From: Armatimonadota bacterium
Lineage (GTDB): Bacteria > Armatimonadota > UBA5829 > DTJY01
Assembly (NCBI GenBank): GCA_963663705.1
Contig: OY760504.1
Span: forward strand, 2,632,063-2,696,062
Direction of reading: 5' to 3'
Length of the DNA stretch: 64,000 bases
The notes under the pieces: generated by a model
What the model was told of the DNA's origin: nothing
The model's input: only the letters and a program-made list of their open reading frames with translations
Database searches by the model: none
Program-made: the position numbers and the translations under genes
Part shown: positions 5,123 through 42,712 of the stretch, one piece after another
Numbering within the stretch: position 1 is the stretch's first letter
Layout of the letters: each line of letters opens with the position of its first letter

Positions 5123-6433
5123 GTGATGATTGCAGGAAGCGCCAAAATAGATATAACGCCGATTGAGAACGTTTGGATGGCAGGCATGCTTCGTGCGCAC
5201 CAATCGGAAGCGGTACACGATCATCTTTATGCGCGGGCGTTGGTGCTGTCTGATACCGAGGATATGTCCGGTGCTTATGCACTGGTATCGGTGGACGTCT
5301 GCTTTCTCAATGAGAAAGTTACAGAAAAGGCAAGATCTCTTATTGAATCAAAGACAGGTATCCCTGCGGGGCATACCGTCATCGCTGCAACACATACACA
5401 CTCAGGACCATCAACCGATGAATCTGGTCAGCTGGCGGAAGAAAGCTACCTTCGCGAACTCGTCGATAAGGTAGTCAATGCAGCCGAGCAAGCTGCGTCG
5501 AAAGCTAAACCGGCGATGGTGGGAACAGGCCATGGCAGTGAGAATACAATCAGCCACTATCGAAGGTTTATTTCCGATGACGGCAAGATCGTCATGATCT
5601 GGGAGCAGAATCCCGATGAGTGCCCTATGCGCTGTCTTGGCAAGATTGACCCGGCGGTCGGCGTGCTGAGAGTTGCTGATGCGGACAATCCCGAACAGAC
5701 CATCGCCGTGCTGTTCAATCATGCAGGTCACCCGAACGTCATGTCGGGTGATAATTACCTTATCAGCGCAGACTATCCCGGCATAACGGTAGAACAGGTA
5801 GAAGCGCACTGTGGATGTAATGCCATGTTCATGAACGGCGCTCAGGGAACGGTGGATATCGACAACTGGAGATATAGAGACTGGGATGGTATGGTTCACA
5901 TCGGCAAAACGCTTGCTGATGAGGTAAATGGTGTTTTGGATGGAATATCAGTGTCGGCAGAGACCGTACGTGGCGCCAGGATCGAATATACGCTGCCTCC
6001 TCGAATGTTATCGGACGAGGAACTGGCGTGGGCTGATAGGATTCTTGCCGAGACCGGCGGCGCTTTCGAGTGCGTTGCAGATGGTGTAGGGGATGACTTC
6101 AAAGCAGTGTTCTATCGCAAGTTGTACGAAAAACAAAGCGTTAATGTAGATGTCGAGCAGATCTGTATAGCGATGGGGGATACGGCATTCATAAGTTTTC
6201 CCGGAGAACTATTCACAGAGATAGGCATGAGAATTAAAGAGCAAAGCCCATTCGCCCACACCTATATCCTTGGCCTGGCAAACGGATACATCGGTTATGT
6301 GCCGACAAGAGATGCAGTTGAACAGGGTGGCTATGAAGTAGATACCAGATGTGTCGGCGACGATGCGGAAGATATAATAGTCGAACACAGTCTGAAGCTG
6401 CTCGACATGGTAAGGCATGAAAGTCGACGGTAA
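5123..6433 (+). CDS. Neutral/alkaline (non-lysosomal) ceramidase-like hydrolase. It covers the N-terminal catalytic domain only and has no signal peptide.
   Basis: N-terminal KIDITP...VWMAGM...VHDHLYARALVL...VSVDVCF pattern and the zinc-site motif AATHTHSGPS, both typical of the neutral ceramidase N-domain (PF04734). Confidence 0.5.
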   Translation: MMIAGSAKIDITPIENVWMAGMLRAHQSEAVHDHLYARALVLSDTEDMSGAYALVSVDVCFLNEKVTEKARSLIESKTGIPAGHTVIAATHTHSGPSTDESGQLAEESYLRELVDKVVNAAEQAASKAKPAMVGTGHGSENTISHYRRFISDDGKIVMIWEQNPDECPMRCLGKIDPAVGVLRVADADNPEQTIAVLFNHAGHPNVMSGDNYLISADYPGITVEQVEAHCGCNAMFMNGAQGTVDIDNWRYRDWDGMVHIGKTLADEVNGVLDGISVSAETVRGARIEYTLPPRMLSDEELAWADRILAETGGAFECVADGVGDDFKAVFYRKLYEKQSVNVDVEQICIAMGDTAFISFPGELFTEIGMRIKEQSPFAHTYILGLANGYIGYVPTRDAVEQGGYEVDTRCVGDDAEDIIVEHSLKLLDMVRHESRR

Positions 6434-6448
6434 ATCTATTATTTACTG

Positions 6449-6746
6449 GGCTCTATGAGAAAGTTTGTGGATAGCGGTATTGTTCCAACAACCGTGCGAA
6501 TAAATTCGCGGCAACAAAAACACGAAGTCGGCCTGCGCCGACTAGATGCAGGCACACCCTTCACGGGTGTGTTGATGCTTCGGTTGCAGAGTCGACGCCG
6601 CCGCTGCCGAAGCCTGGCAGACATGTACCGTCCCTCGATATGCCCTGTGGGCTACTCGGGATAAGCGGCATCCCCCCTCGCCCGAAATCGGGAGAGGGTT
6701 GGGGTGAGGGCGAATCAGATTCATCCGCAAGAAAGCTTATAGAGCC
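6449..6746 (-). repeat. MITE-like structured repeat, copy A. It is inverted relative to copies B-D and carries an extra 20-bp palindromic insertion.
   Basis: Terminal inverted repeats GGCTCTATGAG...CTTATAGAGCC. Reverse-complement matches 24695-24971 over the full length. Insertion ctgcgccgactagatgcagg is present only in this copy. Confidence 0.8.
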
Positions 6747-7071
6747 ATTTACTGATGTTACGCAGAAATACAGATAACTATTCAGGATCGGGACAATCAT
6801 ATCCGGTCGCACTTCATGGGCTTGTCTCCATACCGGAGGAACGAATATCAGCCTGCAATTTCTTCAATACAAAGAAATTCATGACTCATTATTTCTTGCT
6901 CCGATCATTCAACTCGGTATCATGGCGAAAAGAAGTTGGTGAGTCAGCCAGTATCAGTCCTCTATCGATAAGGGAGTGTTAGTGTTATTGTACACTGCTC
7001 TGGGTAAAGAGGAGAAATGGTCTTGCCTTATAAGCCAAATTATGCAGAATATGGGAAATATTATGATAAAT

Positions 7072-8547
7072 ATGCCTGAAATTAAACTTGGAATCGTAGG
7101 AGTAAGCCGTGACTGCTTTCCGGCGGAGCTTACTCAAAACAGACTTAACAAAGTAGTCCAAGCATGCAAAGAGAATGGAATTGAAATCTTCGCATGCGAT
7201 ACAATCCTCGAAGGGGAGAAGGATGCACTCGCCGCCCTGTTGGAGATGGAGAAAGCAGGCGTAAATGCTGCCGTTATCTACCTCGGCAACTTTGGACCTG
7301 AGGGGCCGCTATCCATTTTTGCGCAGAAGTTCAATGGGCCTGTGATGGCTTGTGCCGCGGCAGAGGAGACAGGGGATAACCTGGTTTCCGGTCGTGGCGA
7401 TGCCTTCTGTGGCATGCTAAACGCCTCCTATAACTTCAACTTGAGAGGGGTCACCGTCCATATCCCCCAGATGCCGGTTGGACTTCCTGAAGAGTTGGCT
7501 GAGAAGATAGGGCATTTCGGCAAAGTGGCTAAGGTAGTTGTGGGCGTGCAGAACCTCAAGATATTTGGGTTCGGGCCACGTCCGCATGACTTTTATGCCT
7601 GCAATGCGCCGATCAAGCCGCTGTACGATTTAGGCGTCGAGGTTATGGAGAACAGCGAGCTCGACCTTCTTGCTCTGATGAATGAAGTAAAAGCTGACGA
7701 TCCGAAGGTCATTTCAACTGTCAAGGATATGGAAACCGAGCTAGACGCAGGGAACACATACCCCGATCTCCTTCCAAGGCTTGCGAGGTTTGAGGTCGCG
7801 CTTATGCGGTTCTACAAAAACAACCTCGGGTCAAGGAAGTACGGGGTTTTTGCGGATAAGTGCTGGCCTGCATTTCAGACGCAATTTGGATTCTGCCCAT
7901 GCTATGTAAACTCGAGGCTTGCAGGGAGAGGCATCCCTGTAGCCTGTGAAGTCGATCTGTATGGCGCCGTAAGCGAATACATGTGCCAACTTGCGGCGGA
8001 TATGCCGGCAACACTTCTCGATATAAACAACACTGTTCCCGCAGATATGATCCAGAATACCGATCTTAAGGGAGCAGAGCCGATTGACCTGTTCATGGGT
8101 TTCCACTGCGGGAATACGGCATCATCCTGCATGAAGAATTGCTCAATCCAGTATCAGTACATAATGAAGAGGCTGCTCGAGCCTGAATCAGGGCCTGATA
8201 TCTCGCGAGGAACCCTCGAAGGGCAGATAAAACCGGGAGCGACAACGTTCTTCAGGTTGCAGGGAAATGCGGAGAGCGAGCTTGTGAGCTACGTCGCTGA
8301 AGGGAGTATACTCGATATAGATCCGCGAAGCATCGGAAGCATAGCAGTGTTTGCAATTCCTCATTTCGCCCGGTTCTACAGGCATGTGCTGATTGGCAAA
8401 CAGTTCCCTCATCATGGCGCGGTAGCCTTCGATACCGTGGGCAAAGTGCTCTTTGACGCGTTGAAAATGCTTGGGGTAAAGGATATCAGCCATCCTTTGC
8501 CGAAGGGTGTGATGTATCCTGGAGAGAATCCGTTCGAACTGGGATAA
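7072..8547 (+). CDS. L-fucose/L-arabinose isomerase family protein (FucI/AraA-like sugar isomerase).
   Basis: N-terminal IKLGIVGVSRD...VIYLGNFGPE region plus C-terminal ACEVDLYGAVS and FMGFHCGNTAS motifs of the FucI/AraA fold. ATG at 7072 chosen by the homology onset. Confidence 0.6.
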   Translation: MPEIKLGIVGVSRDCFPAELTQNRLNKVVQACKENGIEIFACDTILEGEKDALAALLEMEKAGVNAAVIYLGNFGPEGPLSIFAQKFNGPVMACAAAEETGDNLVSGRGDAFCGMLNASYNFNLRGVTVHIPQMPVGLPEELAEKIGHFGKVAKVVVGVQNLKIFGFGPRPHDFYACNAPIKPLYDLGVEVMENSELDLLALMNEVKADDPKVISTVKDMETELDAGNTYPDLLPRLARFEVALMRFYKNNLGSRKYGVFADKCWPAFQTQFGFCPCYVNSRLAGRGIPVACEVDLYGAVSEYMCQLAADMPATLLDINNTVPADMIQNTDLKGAEPIDLFMGFHCGNTASSCMKNCSIQYQYIMKRLLEPESGPDISRGTLEGQIKPGATTFFRLQGNAESELVSYVAEGSILDIDPRSIGSIAVFAIPHFARFYRHVLIGKQFPHHGAVAFDTVGKVLFDALKMLGVKDISHPLPKGVMYPGENPFELG

Positions 8548-8591
8548 GAGCAGTTCGGCATAAGCTACATAAAAAAGCGAGATAAAGAATT

Positions 8592-10091
8592 ATGGCATAT
8601 TTTATTGGAATAGATATCGGCACAAGCGGAACCAAGACGCTGCTCATCGATCAGTCTGGAAAGGTCATCGCAACAGCGACGGACACTTATCCGCTAAGCA
8701 CGCCAAGGCCGCTCTGGGCGGAGCAGAACCCTGACGATTGGTGGCGAGCTACGGCTTCGACCATAAGGGAAGTCCTCTCAAGATCAGGCGTTGCTTCATC
8801 GGAGATCAAAGGGATCGGACTCTCAGGCCAGATGCACGGGGCTGTATTCCTCGATGATAGAAACCAGGTTCTCCGTCCGAGTATCCTATGGTGCGATCAA
8901 CGGACAGGTGCCGAATGTGACTGGCTCACCGAGCAGGCGGGAATCGAAAAAGTAGTAGATATTACCTGTAATCCGGTGCTCACTGGATTCACGGCCGGCA
9001 AGATAATCTGGCTCCGAAACCATGAGCCAGAGACCTTCGCAAAAGTGGCAAAGGTTCTGCTGCCAAAAGACTATGTCAGGCTTAAACTGACCGGGGAGTT
9101 TGCAACAGAAGTCTCCGATGCATCGGGTACATCGCTCTTTGATGTCAAGAAACGCAGATGGTCGGAAGAGATGCTGGAGGCAGCACGCATCCCGAAGAGT
9201 TGGATGCCGCCTGTATACGAATCGCCGGAGATATCGGGCAAGATATCGGAAGAAGCTTCGGCTCTGACAGGGCTTAAGGCAGGAACGCCTGTAGTCGGCG
9301 GCGGAGGAGATCAGGCCGCTGGAGCCGTAGGAAACGGAATCGTCGAGACCGGGATAATCTCGTCTACGATAGGCACATCCGGCGTAGTCTTCGCATTCTC
9401 CGAAAAGCCGGTTGTCGACCCAAAACTGAGGTTTCACACTTTTTGCCATGCGGTACCGGGCAAATGGCACATCATGGGAGTAATGCTCTCTGCAGGAGGC
9501 TCACTCCGCTGGTACAGGGATACGTTTGACCCAGATTCATCGTACGATAAGATATGTGCGGAAGCATCCGCTGTCGAACCGGGATGCGAGGGACTATTCT
9601 TCCTGCCGTATCTTACCGGTGAACGGACCCCATATCCTGATCCTAACGCTCGTGGAGCATTCATCGGAGCCACGTTAAGGCATAGTAGACCTCACTTTGC
9701 TCGAGCGGTAATGGAGGGTGTTGCATACGGACTGAACGATTCGTTCGAAATCCTGAAAGAAATGAAAGTAGCGATGAGTGAGGTTCGGGCATCCGGCGGC
9801 GGCGCAAAGAGCGAAACCTGGCGGCAGATTCAATCTGATATCACCGGGCTCGAGCATATGCTTGTAAACGTGGATGAGGGTCCTGCATTCGGTGTTGCAT
9901 TGCTTGCGTCAGTAGGCACCGGGGTATATTCGAGCGTAGAGGAAGCGTGTAAAAGCACGATAAAGGTAGCTTCTTCTACAATGCCTGATGCAGGAAAATC
10001 TCAGCTTTATCAGCGGTATCGCGATGTATATAGATCGCTGTATCCGGCACTGAAAGATCAGTTTGCTCGGATATCCTGCATATCTGGCTAG
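8592..10091 (+). CDS. FGGY-family carbohydrate kinase, xylulokinase-like (could also be a ribulo-, fuculo- or rhamnulokinase).
   Basis: N-terminal YFIGIDIGTSGTKTLLID, then GLSGQMHGAVFLD and C-terminal ASGGGAKS motifs of FGGY kinases. Sits 45 bp downstream of the isomerase, so likely an operon. Confidence 0.75.
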   Translation: MAYFIGIDIGTSGTKTLLIDQSGKVIATATDTYPLSTPRPLWAEQNPDDWWRATASTIREVLSRSGVASSEIKGIGLSGQMHGAVFLDDRNQVLRPSILWCDQRTGAECDWLTEQAGIEKVVDITCNPVLTGFTAGKIIWLRNHEPETFAKVAKVLLPKDYVRLKLTGEFATEVSDASGTSLFDVKKRRWSEEMLEAARIPKSWMPPVYESPEISGKISEEASALTGLKAGTPVVGGGGDQAAGAVGNGIVETGIISSTIGTSGVVFAFSEKPVVDPKLRFHTFCHAVPGKWHIMGVMLSAGGSLRWYRDTFDPDSSYDKICAEASAVEPGCEGLFFLPYLTGERTPYPDPNARGAFIGATLRHSRPHFARAVMEGVAYGLNDSFEILKEMKVAMSEVRASGGGAKSETWRQIQSDITGLEHMLVNVDEGPAFGVALLASVGTGVYSSVEEACKSTIKVASSTMPDAGKSQLYQRYRDVYRSLYPALKDQFARISCISG

Positions 10092-10474
10092 TGCAAAAGC
10101 ATACTTGTGCCAATCGATCCAAAATATATATGGAGAGTTGCCGTTTTGCAGCGCATCATTTTATCATGACTCGCGACCTGCTCGAACTATCTATGCGCTG
10201 CTTCTGCCGACCGGAAGGTAGGGTAAGAGATTGTACATTTGTCAAGTTACAGAGCCATCTGGTAATTTACAAGCATCTGTTTCGCTGATTTGAAGGTGTG
10301 TTAAAATATCCGGAATCGCGATCAGCAGGAAATCCTCGTATCATAAGAGTGCTGTTACCGCCCACGCGCTCTCGAATATAGGCCACAATACCCCGCAAAA
10401 CCATGCGCCGCAAACATGAAAATCATGGTTGGTCCATAATGCGTTGCCGTGATCGCAATCGAGCCATAGACCTA

Positions 10475-13017
10475 TCACACGGGCCTGTGATGGATGCACA
10501 AGCTACTGCCTGCCGGAATCGTGATCATGCCATCCAGTATGATCGACTTGCCATCAGTGCGCGCTGCGAGCCTGCCCGATGGGCCCTCTACATCCACGCA
10601 TGCACCATCAGGCAAATCGGCCAGTTCCAGCGTTTGCAGGCTTTGAACGCCGTATGCCACGTTTAGAGTGTAACGTCCTTCCGACGGTTGTTGCTCGTAT
10701 GTGCCCCATGCGGTTGCAGTGGACCAGAACGTGCGGAAGTTCTCATTATTGATCGCCGGCGCAAATCCGATCCGACCTTCGCTGCAGTTGAATGAAAAGC
10801 CATCAAGGGCAAGTTTGATCGCCCAATTTGCCATGGATCGTGCGTAATGATTGCCCCATTCGATCTCATTCCACGGATTGCGACGTTCCCCATCATGCCG
10901 GTCGCGGACGGCTTTTGTGACAGCAAGACCTTCATCAATCATGCCTTCGTAGATCAGATGGCTTGCCAGTTGATACTCAAACCCGATCATTACCTCATCT
11001 GCATACGGAGTCGGATTGTACGGCCTACCGCCGTGTGGCCAGGTGCATATCACCGTACCAGATTCGTCATTCAGCGCAAATACCCTCGCGGAGTTCAAAT
11101 GATTCCAGAAGTCCAGCTTGAAATTATACCGGTATACGCTCTTAACTGTGCTCAGAACGTGTTCCTGCGGGAGCAAATACCCCAGCCCGTATACGTGAGC
11201 CAATTGCTGACCGATAAGCTGATCGATCAGGCATCCGGGGCCAACCTGATATTTCAGCCCCGAATCGGGATCGTATGGTTGGATATAATATTCGCCATTG
11301 AACAACTGCGCATCCAACTCGCAGGACCCGCTCTCTTCGATCCGGCGGCATTCCAACGCGAAATCGCTTTCGCCAAGATGATCGGCCATCAATGCAGCCG
11401 CTCTCAGCGCTCCGAGGTACATAACTCCGCACATGGCGTTCGGACCGTGAAGCTCGGTGTCATAGGTGTTGTGCTGAACGCCCTCCATGATGCCGTCGCG
11501 ATCGGTGTCCCATTCGAGCCAGGCATATTCGAGCGATCTTTTTACATACGGCCAAATATTTTTCAGCCAGTCGCCGCCTCCTCCCAGTTGCCAGTCGCGG
11601 TAGACTTGCATTATTGCACCCATCTGACCGTCTGCGCATGCGTAGAAATCGTTCGGAGGAGTCCCCAGCGGCAGTTGAAGTCGGAAGCAGACTTTTCCGT
11701 CGGGATGCATGCTGTATTTGTATTCGGCATCACGCATGCTACGTTCAAGCTCCGGATACAGGAAGGCGTGCGTCTGGGCGTAATTCCATACATGCGTGCA
11801 CGATCCTTCACAGGAGCCCGCGTCTGCTCCGCATCCTTCCCAGCCGTAGAATGTACCGTCCGGCAGACGGATGCACGTTGTAGTCTTGATGATGCTTGCC
11901 TGGCTGGAAATTGCATCCAGCACGACAGATGGCAGTGTACTGTCAAACAACGAATCGTGGAAAAGCCGTGTCTCGGTCTCAAGTCTCGAAAGATTGTCTG
12001 CGGTATATTTTGCTGCACTCCGCGCATCGGAAAATTGGCTTGCATAGTAGTTCCGCCAGCGAGGCTTTTCGCACTGACATTCGACATTGCATTCGTGCCA
12101 GTACTTCTCGAATATTGGAAAGCACCATGAGATAAACATCGGCAGGCGCACGGATTGTCCCGGCTTGATGGTCGCCGTCATACCCAGCGAACCGACATCT
12201 GATTTCCCGGATGCGGGTGCATCGCTATCGCTCAGCCGACCATTCGTTTTCATGCAATCTGCCCAGTTCCAGAGCGCAAAAAACCAGTCTTCCGAATGTT
12301 GCCATGCCGTCTGCCAGGTAGTATTCGGCCAGTTGGTCGAGAGCGCTATGGTGCCGAAATTCGGATCATTCGACTTGTCGGCATTCCATTCTGCCTGAAG
12401 CACCGTGAGGCCTTTGTCTCTGTGGATTCTTATCTCACCGGCGCCTGGAACTGCTTCTGTGGGAAGGTTTCCCACAAGGACGATTTCAACGTCCTTCTCG
12501 CTTGGATTGGTCAGTGTCCAGTAGAATATCGCTGTCGGGATGCCGGAATCGTCTGCGTTGTGCGGGATTGTCGGATTCCATGCTTCAAGGGAGACATCGA
12601 CCGGCATGTCGGAATCTTCGAAGTCGATATGCGCGAATGGATAAGAGCCGGTGAATGCTGCCGATCTCATATGCGGCAGGCCGGCGCCGGTATCCCTCGG
12701 CACTCCGAATCCGGATTCTTTTCCGTTCGGGTTGAACGGCGGAAGCGGAGGCGATTGCAGCACCTTCAGCACAGGCGATCCTCCGGCAGATCGCGCGCAC
12801 AACGTGAAGAACGCGAACTGAAGCCTGTTGTCCTTGCCTGGCCGATTAAATATCTCCCAATCCCTAAGCTCTCCGCGCCCTCCCAGGCTTATGGTTCCGG
12901 TGCCGATCCCACCAAGAGGGAATTTGATCTGATCAAGGTGTTTTCCGGTAAAAGTGCGTTGTGGACCCATGCCGTATAAATCATCATGGGAATATGGGAT
13001 GTTTGGGGGATTCATCG
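10475..13017 (-). CDS. Glycoside hydrolase family 116 (GBA2-type beta-glucosidase/glucosylceramidase family).
   Basis: GH116 N-terminal signature FPLGGIGTGTISLGGRGELRDWEIFN followed by a large (alpha/alpha)6-type C-terminal domain. Start moved to ATG 13017 (MNPPNIPY), which has AGGAGAAATCG ahead of it. Confidence 0.75.
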
Positions 13018-13382
13018 ATTTCTCCTCTGAATGTTTGTTCGAGCCAAATACTGGTGTAACCTTTGGATACACTCAACTGAAACCCTGACGCCGGCCAGTT
13101 TGCCGTTTATCAGTCCATTTCTATATAGCAAGTTAGCAAGGCGGTATGACATTTATCAACAATCAGCGCCTCCAAGGACAGCACATTTTATGACAGTATC
13201 AATTTCTTGTTGATGCTCTCCAGCCACCGTCAGTTGAACTTCATCCAGACAGTATGCAAGATTTCGCCTTTTGGCTCCATCGGTGACATGCCGTCATTGC
13301 ACATGTATAATTCTCCTCGAACACATATTACTTTCGGTTTAGAAGTAGCGACCGCCTAAAACGATTTTTTGCAACAAAATTC

Positions 13383-24510: not shown

Positions 24511-24694
24511 TCAAACAGACTAAGATATTCAATCCGATTGATTATGGATACTTGCAGGCAGAGCGTGATACTGATCATGCTCTGCCTGTTTGTCGACTGC
24601 CATGATGTGATCCTCGCTCCTGAAACTGTTATCCGCTGCATAAAGCAGAGGTCGCCCTGCAGTATCTTCCTCCACCATTGCGCTTATAAAGAGG

Positions 24695-24971
24695 GGCTCT
24701 ATAAGCTTTCTTGAGGGTGAATCTGATTCGCCCTCACCCCAACCCTCTCCCGATTTCGGGCGAGGGGGGATGCCGCTTATCCCGAGTAGCCCACAGGGCA
24801 TATCGAGGGACAGTACATGTCTGCCAGGCTTCGGCAGCGGCGTCGTCGACTCTGCAACCGAAGCATCAACACACCCGTGAAGGGTGTGCCGACTTCGTGT
24901 TTTTGTTGCCGCGAATTTATTCGCACGGTTGTTGGAACACTACCGCTATCCACAAACTTTCTCATAGAGCC
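24695..24971 (+). repeat. MITE-like structured repeat, copy B (reference copy, 277 bp).
   Basis: TIRs GGCTCTATAAGC...CTCATAGAGCC. Dense internal hairpins, for example ccctctcccgatttcgggcgagggg and gcgaatttattcgc. The same element occurs at 6449-6746 (inverted), 39676-39994 and 42351-42649. Confidence 0.8.
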
Positions 24972-25296
24972 TAAAGAGGAATCGCTCAGGCAGATACTGT
25001 CCGATATAGCCAAAGAAGAAGAAAAGCACCGCAAGGGTATCAAACACTAACTGCAGGGGTGAAAATGAGAGAGTTGTTATTGGAAGCTGAATCTGAAGCG
25101 AAACGTGTATTGATGGATTTACAGCTTAAGCCACCGATAGACATTCGAATGATAGCAGAATTCTCCACACGCCTCTTGAAGTAATTCCGGTCTTCCAATA
25201 CGGTGAAACCTTTACCACGGCTCAACTGTTCCGTCTTCCTTTATCGCAGGGGGCTTGGCCCCAAGTCGAGTACATGTATGGAAAATGTGGCTGCCA

Positions 25297-26843: not shown

Positions 26844-27506
26844 ATGAAGTGTCCGATTTACTCGACTGATGAAAGATGTAAGCGGCATGGTTTTACATTG
26901 ATCGAGCTGTTAGTTGTTATAGCCATCATAGCTATACTGGCTGCTATCCTCTTCCCGGTTTTCGCCAAGGCTCGTGAAAAGGCCCGGCAGACCACCTGCG
27001 CCAGTAACATGAAGCAGATCGGCACAGCGCTGATGATGTATGTGCAGGATTACGACGAAACCATGCCCTATGGAGATGTATATGCTCTCAACAGCTACTA
27101 TGACGTGTGGACGGTGCTTCAGCCCTACATCAAGAACTGGAATGTCTACGCATGCCCCAGCGACTCTCTGAAAAACTGTGTAAGCCTTGCAGCTGCGAGC
27201 GGTAAGTGGCCTGCCTCCTGGGAAAGCGTGCAGCTCAGTTATGGTTACAACTATGTAAATGAAGGTGATACCCTGGCGCAATTCACCGCACCGTCCGACA
27301 CCTGCGTATTCGCAGAGATGATCGAGCGGCCCTACTTCTATCAGCAGGGTAACACGCTTTCCGACGGCTCCGTAGGCGTCGGCTACACGGATGCTCCCGC
27401 CCGCCTGGCTTCCCGTCACAGTGATGGGATGAATATGTGCTTCTACGATGGTCATGTCAAGTGGGTCAAATCAACAAATGTTGCCAATGTGCGAGCCACT
27501 CCGTAG
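26844..27506 (+). CDS. Prepilin-type N-terminal cleavage/methylation domain protein, DUF1559 / H-X9-DG family.
   Basis: [49 protein letters not shown] and C-terminal [16 protein letters not shown]. The ORF-track start at 26766 would leave an implausibly long leader. Confidence 0.8.
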
Positions 27507-29990: not shown

Positions 29991-30106
29991 TAATACCTGC
30001 CATGTGTATTGATATGTGGTATGTGAATGGAGGGGATGCCCAAGAGTTATACATGTCCCGTAGACACTGCAACAACAAACCGGAATAACTTAACAAAGGA
30101 GAAATC

Positions 30107-30757
30107 ATGAAAAAGAGAACAGGATTTACACTGATTGAGCTGCTAGTTGTTATTGCTATAATTGCAATATTAGCTGCTATACTATTCCCTGTATTTGCAA
30201 AAGCCCGTGAAAAGGGCCGTCAGGCGAGTTGCCAGAGTAACTTGAAACAACTTGGTATGGCTGTGGTTATGTATGTTCAGGATTACGAGGCTTACCCCAT
30301 TATGGATGGGAATTATTCGGATGGGACCTACTTCTATTGGCTGAATGAACTCGATTCGTACATCAAGAACGCGAAAGTAAGTGTTTGCCCTACGCTCAAT
30401 CAGGCGTACAGCTACGGTTACAACGGGTACATGCTTGGAGACACGCGCGATCTGACCAGTCGTGGCTGGTACAATGGACTTGCGACCGATTCCAGCTTGA
30501 AATCGCCTGCTGATACCGTGGTCTTGTGCGATACGGATCAGTATTGCCGCTCAAATTGTATCTATCCCACGATGATTGCCGGGTATAACCCGCCTTCGTC
30601 TCAAGGTAGTAACACCGGCTGCGTAGGCGACTATCACAGCGGTGGCGCGAACCTGGCCTTTGCGGACGGTCATGTCAAATGGATGAAGAGAACCGCCTTG
30701 AGCCCCACCTGGGGCAGTGGGGTAGGCGATACGGTCAATATCTGGGACCGAGAATAG
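30107..30757 (+). CDS. Prepilin-type DUF1559 / H-X9-DG protein.
   Basis: [39 protein letters not shown] and C-terminal [16 protein letters not shown]. Shares a roughly 100-nt conserved upstream leader with the next gene. Confidence 0.85.
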
Positions 30758-30903
30758 CGCTGACATATAGTATACAACAGCAAACCTCCAGGAGACTGTT
30801 GTAGGTTTGCTGTGGTATGCGAATGTAGGGAAGGGCCAAGAGTTATACATGTCCCGTATGCACTGCAACAACAAGCCGGAATAACTTCCGCAAAGGAGAA
30901 ATC

Positions 30904-31653
30904 ATGAGAAAGAGAACAGGATTCACACTAATTGAGCTGCTAGTTGTTATAGCTATAATAGCCATCTTGGCAGCTATACTATTCCCTGTTTTTGCCAAAG
31001 CCCGTGAAAAGGCACGGCAGATCACTTGCCTATCGAACCTCAAACAGTTAGGCGTGGCTACCATGATGTACATGCAGGATTACGACGAAGTCTTCCCTCC
31101 CTGCGTGATGTCGAGTAATCAGTGCCCGCTCGATGGCGACTTTTGGCCGGTATGGGATGATGGCAATGGTAACAACTTTTATTATTTCCAAGCTGGGCTT
31201 TATCCTTATATAAAGGGCAACCACTATCATAAAGATACTGTTTTTGTCTGTCCTAGCCAGGCCAACACAAGCGATGCAAATGCCTGGACGAGTGGATACG
31301 GTCTGAACACTACGTTGTGCGGTCGTATACCCTGGGGCGAAACATGCAGGAGCCTGGGCTCCGTAACCAGCCCGGCGAGTACATATCTCATCTATGACTC
31401 CTCTTGCCCCGGTTGCGGTTTCGTGAACTGGTCGTCGCCGAATAGCGCTTACTACTTCCCTGGTGAGGGGGCATACAATGGTGTGTCTGCTCCGACCAGC
31501 GACCCAAGCTATTCCACACCCCGACATAGTGGGGGAATCAATGTCGCCTTTGCCGACGGTCATGCAAAATGGATTCAGTTGCAGACACTCGGACAGCAGT
31601 GCATCGATGCCGGCAACAACGTAAGTGGAAATGCCTGGGGACAAGGGTATTGA
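30904..31653 (+). CDS. Prepilin-type DUF1559 / H-X9-DG protein, near-identical paralogue of 19143-19898.
   Basis: [15 protein letters not shown]...[42 protein letters not shown]. About 95% amino-acid identity to the copy at 19143-19898 on the opposite strand. Confidence 0.85.
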
Positions 31654-39391: not shown

Positions 39392-39675
39392 GCACTGTTG
39401 GCTGCTATCTCCGATTCGTTTGCAAGCGCCGTGACGCCGAATCTCGCGCGAGAGGATATCGTCGGTTTGCTGGAGCATCCCCCTTGTGATATTCGGCCTT
39501 TCCTTTATAATACTGGCTGGTGAAGGGGCACTTCTCGCCGGTTACGGTCAGTTGGTTTAGTAGCTGTTCCATGTTGTTGTAGACGTGCCAGCCGGATTTG
39601 TCCACGGTCTGTATCCGTTCCGGTAATCCTCATGGGTCTCCCCACGCTCATACAGGCGTATTCCTATCAGATATT

Positions 39676-39994
39676 GGCACTATAAGCTTTTTTGTGGGTG
39701 AATCTGATTAGGCCCTCACCCCAACCCTCTCCCGATTTCGGGCGAGGGGGGATACCGCTTATCCCGAGTAGCCCACAGGGCATATCGAGGGACGGTACAT
39801 GTCTACCAGGCTTCGGCAGCGGCGTCTTCAGGAATTCAATAATGTAGCCGCAGGCTTTACGCTGCGATCTACGCGCCCATAAAGGGTGCGCCTACATCTA
39901 GTCGGCGCAGGGCGACTTAGTGTTTTTGTTGCCGCGAATTTATTCGCACGGTTGTTGGAACACTGTCGATATCCACAAACTTTCTCATAGAGCC
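39676..39994 (+). repeat. MITE-like structured repeat, copy C (319 bp, the most diverged internal segment).
   Basis: TIRs GGCACTATAAGC...CTCATAGAGCC. Shares the 5' 150 bp and the 3' 80 bp with copies B and D. Confidence 0.75.
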
Positions 39995-40002
39995 CAGATA
40001 TT

Positions 40003-41238
40003 TTATCTGCCAAGAAATGTCCGATAGTTTCCTGCAAAAAGGCATTTAACATCTCGGCGAATCTCAGCATCTGAGACTTTCCATCCTGCGGCGGTCAGGT
40101 TTGCGTACTCATCCACAAGAACCTGGCCGATTATTTCTCTTGAGTGCGACCACTTGTAGACAAGTTGATCCAGCACCCTGGCATCCGAATGCTGGGGGAT
40201 CACGCTCATGCCGAGCATCTCCAGCCTCATCCTGGTAATCTCTTCAATCAGACTGGGGTTGTTCAAGAACCACCAGCATCCAAACACCATGAGATTCCGA
40301 AACTTCCTTGCAGTCACGCACAGTTCATGTTGATTTTCACGCGACAGCATTGTGAGCATAAACTTATTCTGCGGGTAAGCGGCACATATGCGCTCAACGG
40401 CTTCTATGCTGCCTTTGCCCATGGAGTCGCCGGATTGCCTGAGTTCCGGATTACATAGCCTTTTCACTCCTATCATCATAGCGAGTGGGATACCCGACGC
40501 TTCTGCAACAGGTAGTACGCACGACTCCAGCAGGCGCCCGCGAGGGGAATTCTCAGGAAACGTAAAGTTGGGTGGGAGCGAGACTGCCATGTAATGCGCA
40601 TCTATTCGACCTACCCAGTCGCGGAGGAATCGCTGTACCTCGGCTATGGTGCGCCCGCCGAAGTCTGCATTGGCATCATAGCCCCATTCCCTGAGACGAA
40701 TGCACGCCGATTCCCACGAATTCAGAAGCACATCGAGCCTCAATGACGCATGAAACCTCGCGTCAAACCGTGCTGTGTTTTCCCAGACCTTGCGCTCCGC
40801 ATCGTCGAACGGATCGTTCGTCATCACCAACGATTCGATTTTCGCAAGCTCGAAAACTTTATCGATATGCTCATCTACGCTCATATTGCGAAAGAATGCC
40901 CGGTATTTATTCAGATCACGGCTGAGCGTATCCAGCCCGAAGTGATGCAGCACGGTGATCACCCCACGGCACGACTCGCTAATTGGCGAGTGCTCGATGA
41001 AGAGGGTTTTCCATATCAGGTCCGCCTGGTCGCATTTGGGGAGCAGCCAGAAGTCGCTGTACGGCATATCCAGCCAGCGAACTGCCTCTGCTATCAGGTA
41101 ATGATAAGTAAGCAGTTCATCTATCCCCCGAAGCAGAAACGATCCAAACTCCGGTGCATACAGATGGGTATGCATGTCCATGACTTTGACATCTGCAACA
41201 GCACGCATCACCATTTCTTTAGTAGAAGGCTTATTCAT
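40003..41238 (-). CDS. Uronate (glucuronate) isomerase-like protein, UxaC family in the amidohydrolase superfamily.
   Basis: MDMHTHL...LLTYHYLIAEAVRW parallels the UxaC N-terminal DYHCHL...GDHYKWRAMR. C-terminal MVFGCWWFLNN...DSR...DEY parallels UxaC FGSGWWFND...DSRSF...HEY. Confidence 0.55.
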   Translation of the reverse strand: MNKPSTKEMVMRAVADVKVMDMHTHLYAPEFGSFLLRGIDELLTYHYLIAEAVRWLDMPYSDFWLLPKCDQADLIWKTLFIEHSPISESCRGVITVLHHFGLDTLSRDLNKYRAFFRNMSVDEHIDKVFELAKIESLVMTNDPFDDAERKVWENTARFDARFHASLRLDVLLNSWESACIRLREWGYDANADFGGRTIAEVQRFLRDWVGRIDAHYMAVSLPPNFTFPENSPRGRLLESCVLPVAEASGIPLAMMIGVKRLCNPELRQSGDSMGKGSIEAVERICAAYPQNKFMLTMLSRENQHELCVTARKFRNLMVFGCWWFLNNPSLIEEITRMRLEMLGMSVIPQHSDARVLDQLVYKWSHSREIIGQVLVDEYANLTAAGWKVSDAEIRRDVKCLFAGNYRTFLGR

Positions 41239-42204: not shown

Positions 42205-42282
42205 CATCCGACCCGGATTCAATCGGTACCTACCGAGCATCTACTGTATCTGTCATAATGCTTTGTTCTAAACCGTTTGTGG

Positions 42283-42310
42283 GCTTATCCACAAACGGTT
42301 TCGTAGAGCC
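42283..42310 (+). repeat. Partial MITE right-end fragment immediately upstream of copy D.
   Basis: ccgtttgtgggcttatccacaaacggtttcgtagagcc resembles the element terminus atccacaaactttctcatagagcc. Confidence 0.45.
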
Positions 42311-42350
42311 CAATAAAGCCTGGCAACAGAAGAATAAATGATTATTTTAC

Positions 42351-42649
42351 GGCTCTATAAGCTTTCTTGTGGGTGAATCTGATTCGCCCTCACCCCTACC
42401 CCTCTCCCGATTTCGGGCGAGGGGGGATGCCGCTTATCCCGAGTAGCCCACAGGGCATATCGAGGGACGGTACATGTCTGCCAGGCTTCGGCAGCGGCGT
42501 CTTCGACTCTGCAACCGAAGCATCAACATACCCGTGAAGGGTGTGCATACACGAAGTCGGCGCAGGCCGATTTAGTGTTTTTGTTGCCGCGAATTTATTC
42601 GCACGGTTGTTGGAACACTACCTCTATCCACAAACTTTCTCATAGAGCC
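42351..42649 (+). repeat. MITE-like structured repeat, copy D (299 bp).
   Basis: TIRs GGCTCTATAAGC...CTCATAGAGCC. Near-identical to copy B. Confidence 0.8.
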
Positions 42650-42712
42650 TTATTTTTACTTGACAGCCGAAGATTCCGGTGTTAAGATAACAACTTGATT
42701 TTCGAGGGGAAT

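Follow-up and report, generated by a model that had tools for sequence, protein, structure and literature searches.

The closest described counterpart of the repeat family reported here is a 187-bp MITE of Microcystis aeruginosa PCC 7806 (BMC Genomics 2024, PMC11448079): a short, non-coding, mostly intergenic element in many copies, mobilised by ISL3 elements, with GGCTCT inverted termini held in common with ISL3-family transposase genes. GGCTCT... ends and 8-nt target duplications are reported there both for the ISL3 elements themselves and for the MITE. More distant are the classical MITEs (Correia, RUP, ERIC, MITEAba12; reviewed in PMC10969869), which are likewise small, non-coding and intergenic, with terminal inverted repeats (TIRs), target-site duplications (TSDs) and strong folding, but which differ from the present family in transposase family, duplication length and sequence and are set apart from it by description.

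A second line of background concerns the BoxC/PIT/TMECO intrastrand-triplex motif (Holder et al., NAR 2015, PMC4666352), published as the pattern CCCTCNCCC-N3-6-GGGNGAGGG-N3-GGGNGAGGG. In vitro, single-stranded DNA of the E. coli motif formed a triplex, whereas the duplex did not. The 2015 survey counted 3,610 occurrences in 262 proteobacterial genomes, with related GC-rich motifs in cyanobacteria; the motif was found as stand-alone copies or inverted pairs, with the strict pattern in proteobacterial genomes, and has been linked to genome rearrangement and instability (PMC4666352). The survey reported no case in which the motif accompanied a transposon, plasmid, phage or transposase remnant, and it offered no explanation of how the motif spreads (PMC4666352). 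In the later literature, no paper was found that ties the BoxC/TMECO motif to MITEs.

The repeat described here was found in a 64-kb stretch of DNA ("the window") from the 3.78-Mb genome of an Armatimonadota bacterium. It is very probably a non-autonomous ISL3-family MITE, moved in trans by an ISL3 DDE transposase, with a BoxC/PIT/TMECO motif in its core.

Repeat copies, boundaries and target sites

Four copies of 277–319 bp are present in the window (Table 1), and alignment bears out both the coordinates and the single inverted copy given in the initial annotation. Pairwise identity is 90.3–98.2% with gaps excluded: copies 1 and 2 are 98% identical, while copy 3 is ~90–91% identical to the others. 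Among the differences are a 21-bp indel and a replaced middle segment in copy 3. A profile search (nhmmer) found no further copies in the 64-kb window, degenerate ones included. When the copies were aligned (MAFFT) with 20 nt of flank on each side, similarity ended abruptly at GGCTCTATAAG on the left and CTCATAGAGCC on the right. The shared, near-perfect termini described in the initial annotation also hold up: with one mismatch or fewer allowed, GGCTCTATRAG occurs 10 times in the window, against 1.6 expected, and eight of these are the eight element ends. Orientation relative to the neighboring genes is inconsistent from copy to copy. Copy 1 lies 8–15 bp downstream of the stop codon of a ceramidase-like gene (5123-6433), and the right-hand target duplication of copy 3 directly abuts the stop codon of a minus-strand gene (40003-41238).

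Table 1. Coordinates of the repeat copies and associated features in the window.
Feature	Position	Strand	Description
MITE copy 1	6449-6746	-	298 bp; inverted relative to the other three; nhmmer E = 2.9e-112
MITE copy 2	24695-24971	+	277 bp; lacks 21-bp internal segment; between convergent genes
MITE copy 3	39676-39994	+	319 bp; most divergent, long middle-region variant; left terminus GGCACTAT
MITE copy 4	42351-42649	+	299 bp; between AraC-type regulator gene and next gene
TSD, copy 1	6441-6448 and 6747-6754		+ strand reads ATTTACTG; element orientation CAGTAAAT; perfect 8/8
TSD, copy 2	24687-24694 and 24972-24979		TAAAGAGG; perfect 8/8
TSD, copy 3	39668-39675 and 39995-40002		CAGATATT; perfect 8/8
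TSD, copy 4	42342-42350 and 42650-42659		TTATTTTAC vs. TTATTTTTAC; imperfect, one T differs within T run
Triplex motif, copy 1	6675-6710	+	CCCTCGCCC-GAAATC-GGGAGAGGG-TTG-GGGTGAGGG
Triplex motif, copy 2	24731-24766	-	matches published pattern
Triplex motif, copy 3	39713-39748	-	matches published pattern
Triplex motif, copy 4	42387-42423	-	4-nt second loop, GGGAGAGGG-GTAG-GGGTGAGGG; just outside strict pattern
Degenerate 5' remnant of full-length ISL3 IS	42211-42310	-	local alignment to contig L014, 1510-1618
Terminator-like hairpin with T-rich tail, in core	42554-42583	+	consensus scan: 1 vs. 0.6 expected, not significant

Three of the four copies are flanked by perfect 8-bp direct duplications, and the fourth by a near-perfect one. 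At fixed positions the chance of each perfect duplication is 4^-8, so that coincidence is excluded for the three. All of the duplicated targets are AT-rich, in a genome of ~51% GC. Absence of such duplications would have counted against the original suggestion of a MITE-like family; their presence supports it.

Repetition by itself might also be produced by an assembly artefact or by segmental duplication, and the repetition is all that speaks for either. Outside the 8-bp duplications the flanks of the four copies have nothing in common, and the copies differ from each other by substitutions and indels. An independent Logan assembly of run ERR12015701 (contig ERR12015701_263832) is 100% identical to window positions 6697-13190, giving the copy 1 junction at full identity, and breaks inside copy 1; since this is how a multi-copy repeat behaves, an artefact can be discounted, and for explanations of this kind together the probability left is almost nil.

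Relationship to ISL3 insertion sequences

When JGI metagenome contigs were scanned for the invariant right end of the element, CCACAAACTTTCTCATAGAGCC, four matched; they share its termini only and not its core. One of these, L014, carries at 319-1615 a complete 1,297-bp insertion sequence (IS) encoding a 412-aa ISL3-family DDE transposase (Pfam DDE_Tnp_ISL3, E = 5.6e-68; Zn_ribbon_ISL3, 4.5e-12). The left end of the MITE agrees with the end on the C-terminal side of this transposase at 23 of 26 positions, and the right end with that on the N-terminal side at 24 of 26; the crossed comparisons are poorer (19/26 and 20/26). On its other strand, the left MITE end can still be read as ...PQE..stop, a decayed transposase-gene tail. 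Against contigs L015 and L016 the MITE end matches at 22 of 22 positions. The second IS, on L015 (170-1480), ends in the same 22 nt, although the transposase it encodes is only 51% identical. A related full ISL3 element was found at the contig end of an Armatimonadota MAG (L023). An element with the same inverted repeats that encodes a transposase, the partner a non-autonomous element would need, does therefore exist, and together with the target-site duplications it supports the transposable-element reading put forward in the initial annotation. Because its ends match those of ISL3 elements, and because the GGCTCT termini and 8-nt duplications are as reported for these (PMC11448079), the repeat can be assigned to the ISL3-type MITEs.

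Contig L016 carries at 1234-1503 a different MITE, of 270 bp, derived by internal deletion from an L015-type ISL3 element. A perfect 8-bp TSD, TTAAATTA, flanks this MITE, which, as seen on L016 and L013 (metagenome Ga0105048), retains the last 48 codons of an L015-type transposase. The copy on L013 (1197-1280) adjoins a DUF1559-type gene. Unlike the MITEs, neither full IS is flanked by an 8-bp duplication, whether on L014 (307-318, 1616-1627) or on L015; recombination between copies and chimeric metagenome contigs are both possibilities.

The insertion sequences on L014, L015, and L023 thus resemble the MITE in their ~26-bp TIRs (23–24 of 26 positions) and in the C-terminal codons left at one of its ends, and differ in that their ~1.2 kb of coding sequence is replaced in the MITE by ~200–250 bp of unrelated, hairpin-rich DNA. 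The Microcystis MITE differs in its cyanobacterial host, in its length (187 vs. 277–319 bp), and in its terminus (GGCTCTTCG vs. GGCTCTATRAG), and is set apart by description; the triplex motif is not reported in it (PMC11448079).

The initial annotation listed an extra end fragment at 42283-42310. The fragment is real (84% identity over 25 nt), but it is not a MITE end: it belongs to a ~100-bp remnant of the 5' end of an ISL3 element (Table 1), for which the alignment score is 88 to the transposase-proximal end of L014 vs. 36 to the MITE end. The remnant comprises a terminal inverted repeat (GGCTCTACGAAACCGTTTGTGG), a subterminal hairpin (TTTGTGGGCTTATCCACAAAC; TTTGTGGGCTTAYCCACAAAC in the region aligned to L014), a leader, an ATG, and a few decayed codons. 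It sits 40 bp from copy 4, between that copy and the AraC-type regulator gene. With an ISL3 stump and a MITE copy side by side, this intergenic region must have been hit at least twice. On the other side of copy 4, 11 bp past its right end, is a good match to a sigma-70-like promoter (42660-42688; TTGACA-17-TAAGAT with TG), which is native flanking sequence outside the MITE.

A search of the window by tblastn with two ISL3 transposases found no ISL3 transposase coding sequence. The L014-type transposase has more than 5,000 homologs, and none of the best 120 is encoded on the host's 3.78-Mb contig. The 98% identity of copies 1 and 2 implies recent activity. We infer mobilisation in trans, the presence of a working partner in the genome now or in the recent past, and capture of the core from another source; with no partner on the host contig among the best 120 homologs, the family could by now be orphaned.

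Capture may be questioned, as the MITE might instead be a simple internal deletion of the host's own ISL3 element, with its core derived from the leader or passenger region of that parent. Both MITE ends do match the corresponding IS ends, older copies from L020, a second locus in this organism, have ~11 nt of IS subterminal sequence beyond what the window copies retain (TCAGTTTAC), and passenger DNA is found in some ISL3 members (ISPpu12a; PMC4133298). Outside the ends, however, the core does not resemble L014, L015, L016, or L023, and the IS remnant in the window has a short leader of L014 type rather than the MITE core. An origin by simple deletion accordingly seems unlikely.

In the favored scheme of an ISL3-mobilised MITE with a captured core, the DDE transposase of a full-length element would recognise the ~26-bp TIRs (GGCTCTATRAG.....TTGTGGRT) in trans and insert the MITE into AT-rich 8-bp targets, duplicating them in the process. 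Two stretches of the IS would persist in the MITE: ~34 bp from its transposase-distal end, with the last codons in decayed form (...PQE..stop), and ~26 bp from the transposase-proximal one; the ~200–250 bp of GC-rich, hairpin-dense DNA between these, unrelated to the IS, would have been captured rather than IS-derived. The triplex motif is the first module of this core, and each transposition would copy it to a new intergenic site.

Folding, coding potential, and possible sources of the core

The core is GC-rich and hairpin-dense, as first described, and folds far better than shuffled sequences (z-scores of -6.7 and -5.5 for the two strands). One of the hairpins originally proposed does not exist: ggtgagggcg and cgccctcacc are a single sequence, read on opposite strands in copies that are inverted relative to each other.

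Stable folding raises the possibility, also considered in the initial annotation, that the copies are structured ncRNA genes or cis-regulatory RNAs, with the hairpins as the functional product and the terminal repeats as a closing stem. Besides the z-scores, a hairpin ACACCC-GTGAA-GGGTGT stays paired despite three changes, one compensatory and two one-sided, and a T/V to A/A swap in the ORFs of other copies suggests that the same hairpin change occurs elsewhere. On the other hand, stability is about equal on the two strands, which is the behavior of DNA palindromes. No Rfam family is matched, at gathering thresholds or at E-values up to 10. Covariation among the four copies, a comparison of low power, amounts to one compensatory pair among 90 predicted, with about a dozen cells broken; this is not above control (127 of 500 shuffles score as high), and the alifold covariation term is +1.75. 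A scan found no promoter-like site inside the element. Inconsistent orientation relative to genes is a further difficulty, and an RNA function would leave the 8-bp duplications and the ISL3 ends unexplained. The ncRNA alternative is therefore considered very unlikely, with a small probability left for an exapted RNA.

Two narrower roles for the core were rejected. An ORF of 69–88 aa had been thought to be conserved across the copies, but it is open only in copies 1 and 2; the frames of the other two differ, so that the core has no conserved ORF and a conserved small protein is not indicated. The terminator-like hairpin in copy 4 (Table 1) does not exceed chance in the consensus scan, copy 2 lacks the left arm, and the copies are inconsistently oriented.

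No source of the core was detected in the collections searched, and the MITE family was found in no other genome among them. Enterobacterial-looking GC-rich motifs prompted consideration of an E. coli origin, which was dismissed when 5,426 E. coli genomes yielded no match to the element. The phage collection gave no match; in viral contigs, the end pattern had one irrelevant match and two core patterns had none. Twelve single right-end matches in an exact-pattern scan of GTDB species genomes were put down to chance resemblance; in several Gastranaerophilales/Melainabacteria genomes (L003, L009, L012, L002, and L001), for example, the 25-nt end pattern falls in a conserved stretch of a ROK-family kinase gene, which is unrelated to the element. 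The plasmid collection produced just three short, weak matches, from Stanieria, Pseudanabaena, and Cupriavidus, all to element positions 23–77, where the triplex motif lies.

The triplex motif

Every copy contains the BoxC/PIT/TMECO intrastrand-triplex motif, 35–75 nt from one end. The strict published pattern has three exact matches in the window, against none expected in shuffled sequences, and these are in copies 1–3; all matches fall inside MITE copies, and there is no stand-alone motif in the 64-kb window. The 9-nt blocks CCCTCGCCC, GGGAGAGGG, and GGGTGAGGG are identical to those of the E. coli TMECO form "type A mm," the commonest in that species. Given this identity in all three blocks, the MITE motif may form an intrastrand purine-motif triplex. 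Its loops, of 6 and 3 nt, are within the published pattern, and its location is likewise intergenic; the loop sequences themselves differ, and here the motif is a module of a larger transposon with inverted repeats and target duplications, in contrast to the stand-alone copies or inverted pairs of the 2015 study (PMC4666352).

The whole repeat might accordingly be viewed as a palindromic repeat of REP/BIME or BoxC type that spreads through recombination or the action of a RAYT-type enzyme, with its inverted termini incidental. The core does contain a true BoxC/TMECO motif and several short GC-rich palindromes. A possible resemblance of one core module, GGATGCCGCTTATCC...GTAG, to E. coli REP is not counted as support. 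Stand-alone copies of the motif do occur in other bacteria: inverted repeats were sought around those of Stanieria and Cupriavidus, and none were found. The unit repeated in the window, however, is the entire 277–319 bp, with ISL3-type inverted repeats at its ends and 8-bp duplications outside them, and the motif is never found there on its own. Spread as a REP- or BoxC-like repeat is thus highly improbable.

If the repeat is instead an ISL3-mobilised MITE, it may be a mobile vehicle that copies the BoxC/PIT/TMECO motif, which would be the first such case. The patchy distribution of the motif across phyla could then be due at least in part to cargo or relics of MITEs mobilised by insertion sequences. 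This whole reading, the vehicle included, is speculative and offered with considerable doubt.

Copy number and genomic setting

The host's 3.78-Mb genome contains at least 11 members of the family, of differing ages. A 77-aa ORF (24817-25050) that begins in copy 2 and runs into its flank is annotated as a protein on the 3,780,622-bp NCBI/ENA contig. A search of 5.8 billion protein clusters with this MITE-derived ORF returned six proteins, all on the host contig, and from these five extra copies were deduced beyond those in the window and at L020. In most of the five, the middle region is of the long type seen in copy 3. The 77-aa ORF and its five annotated counterparts are almost certainly spurious genes. 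The L020 locus starts within a diverged copy (1-64) and includes a degenerate half copy at 1595-1743 (79% identity); the ~11 nt of IS subterminal sequence still present in its copies have been lost from those in the window, which indicates subfamilies of different age. Short-read contigs from the same organism (L019, the Logan contig, and L020) and from the Armatimonadota MAG (L023) end inside MITE or IS copies, so that these elements fragment assemblies.

Neighboring genes in the window encode DUF1559/N-methyl prepilin-type proteins, a PEP-CTERM protein, and many glycoside hydrolases; the best named homologs of a flanking isomerase are from Armatimonadota, at no more than 75% identity, which points to an uncultured host in that phylum or close to it. 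The window also contains large direct and inverted duplications unrelated to the MITE (19142-19887/30909-31654; 20409-21517/25329-26446; and 26861-27055, 30094-30288, and 30891-31085). One pair, of 746 nt at 95% identity, represents paralogous DUF1559/N-methyl prepilin-type genes, and pairs of 76–80% identity cover GntR/LacI-type regulator genes, which suggests a duplicated and inverted gene cluster.

Significance

The MITE family is real, clearly delimited and specific to its lineage, and belongs to a kind already known. Its description as new-looking in the initial annotation is correct for the family, whose core is unmatched in the collections searched, but not for the type of element, since ISL3-mobilised MITEs are known (PMC11448079), nor for all of its modules, one of which is BoxC/TMECO (PMC4666352). 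For a phylum that has been little studied, it supplies a new entry at family level; it also provides clean insertion markers for the host genome, and accounts both for breaks in short-read assemblies and for the spurious gene call at 24817-25050 in the public annotation. As an ISL3-type MITE it is an ordinary element; the embedded BoxC/TMECO motif is the one feature that specialists might find notable. The presence of this motif, in a distant phylum, within a transposon that was active recently makes one route for its dispersal directly testable.
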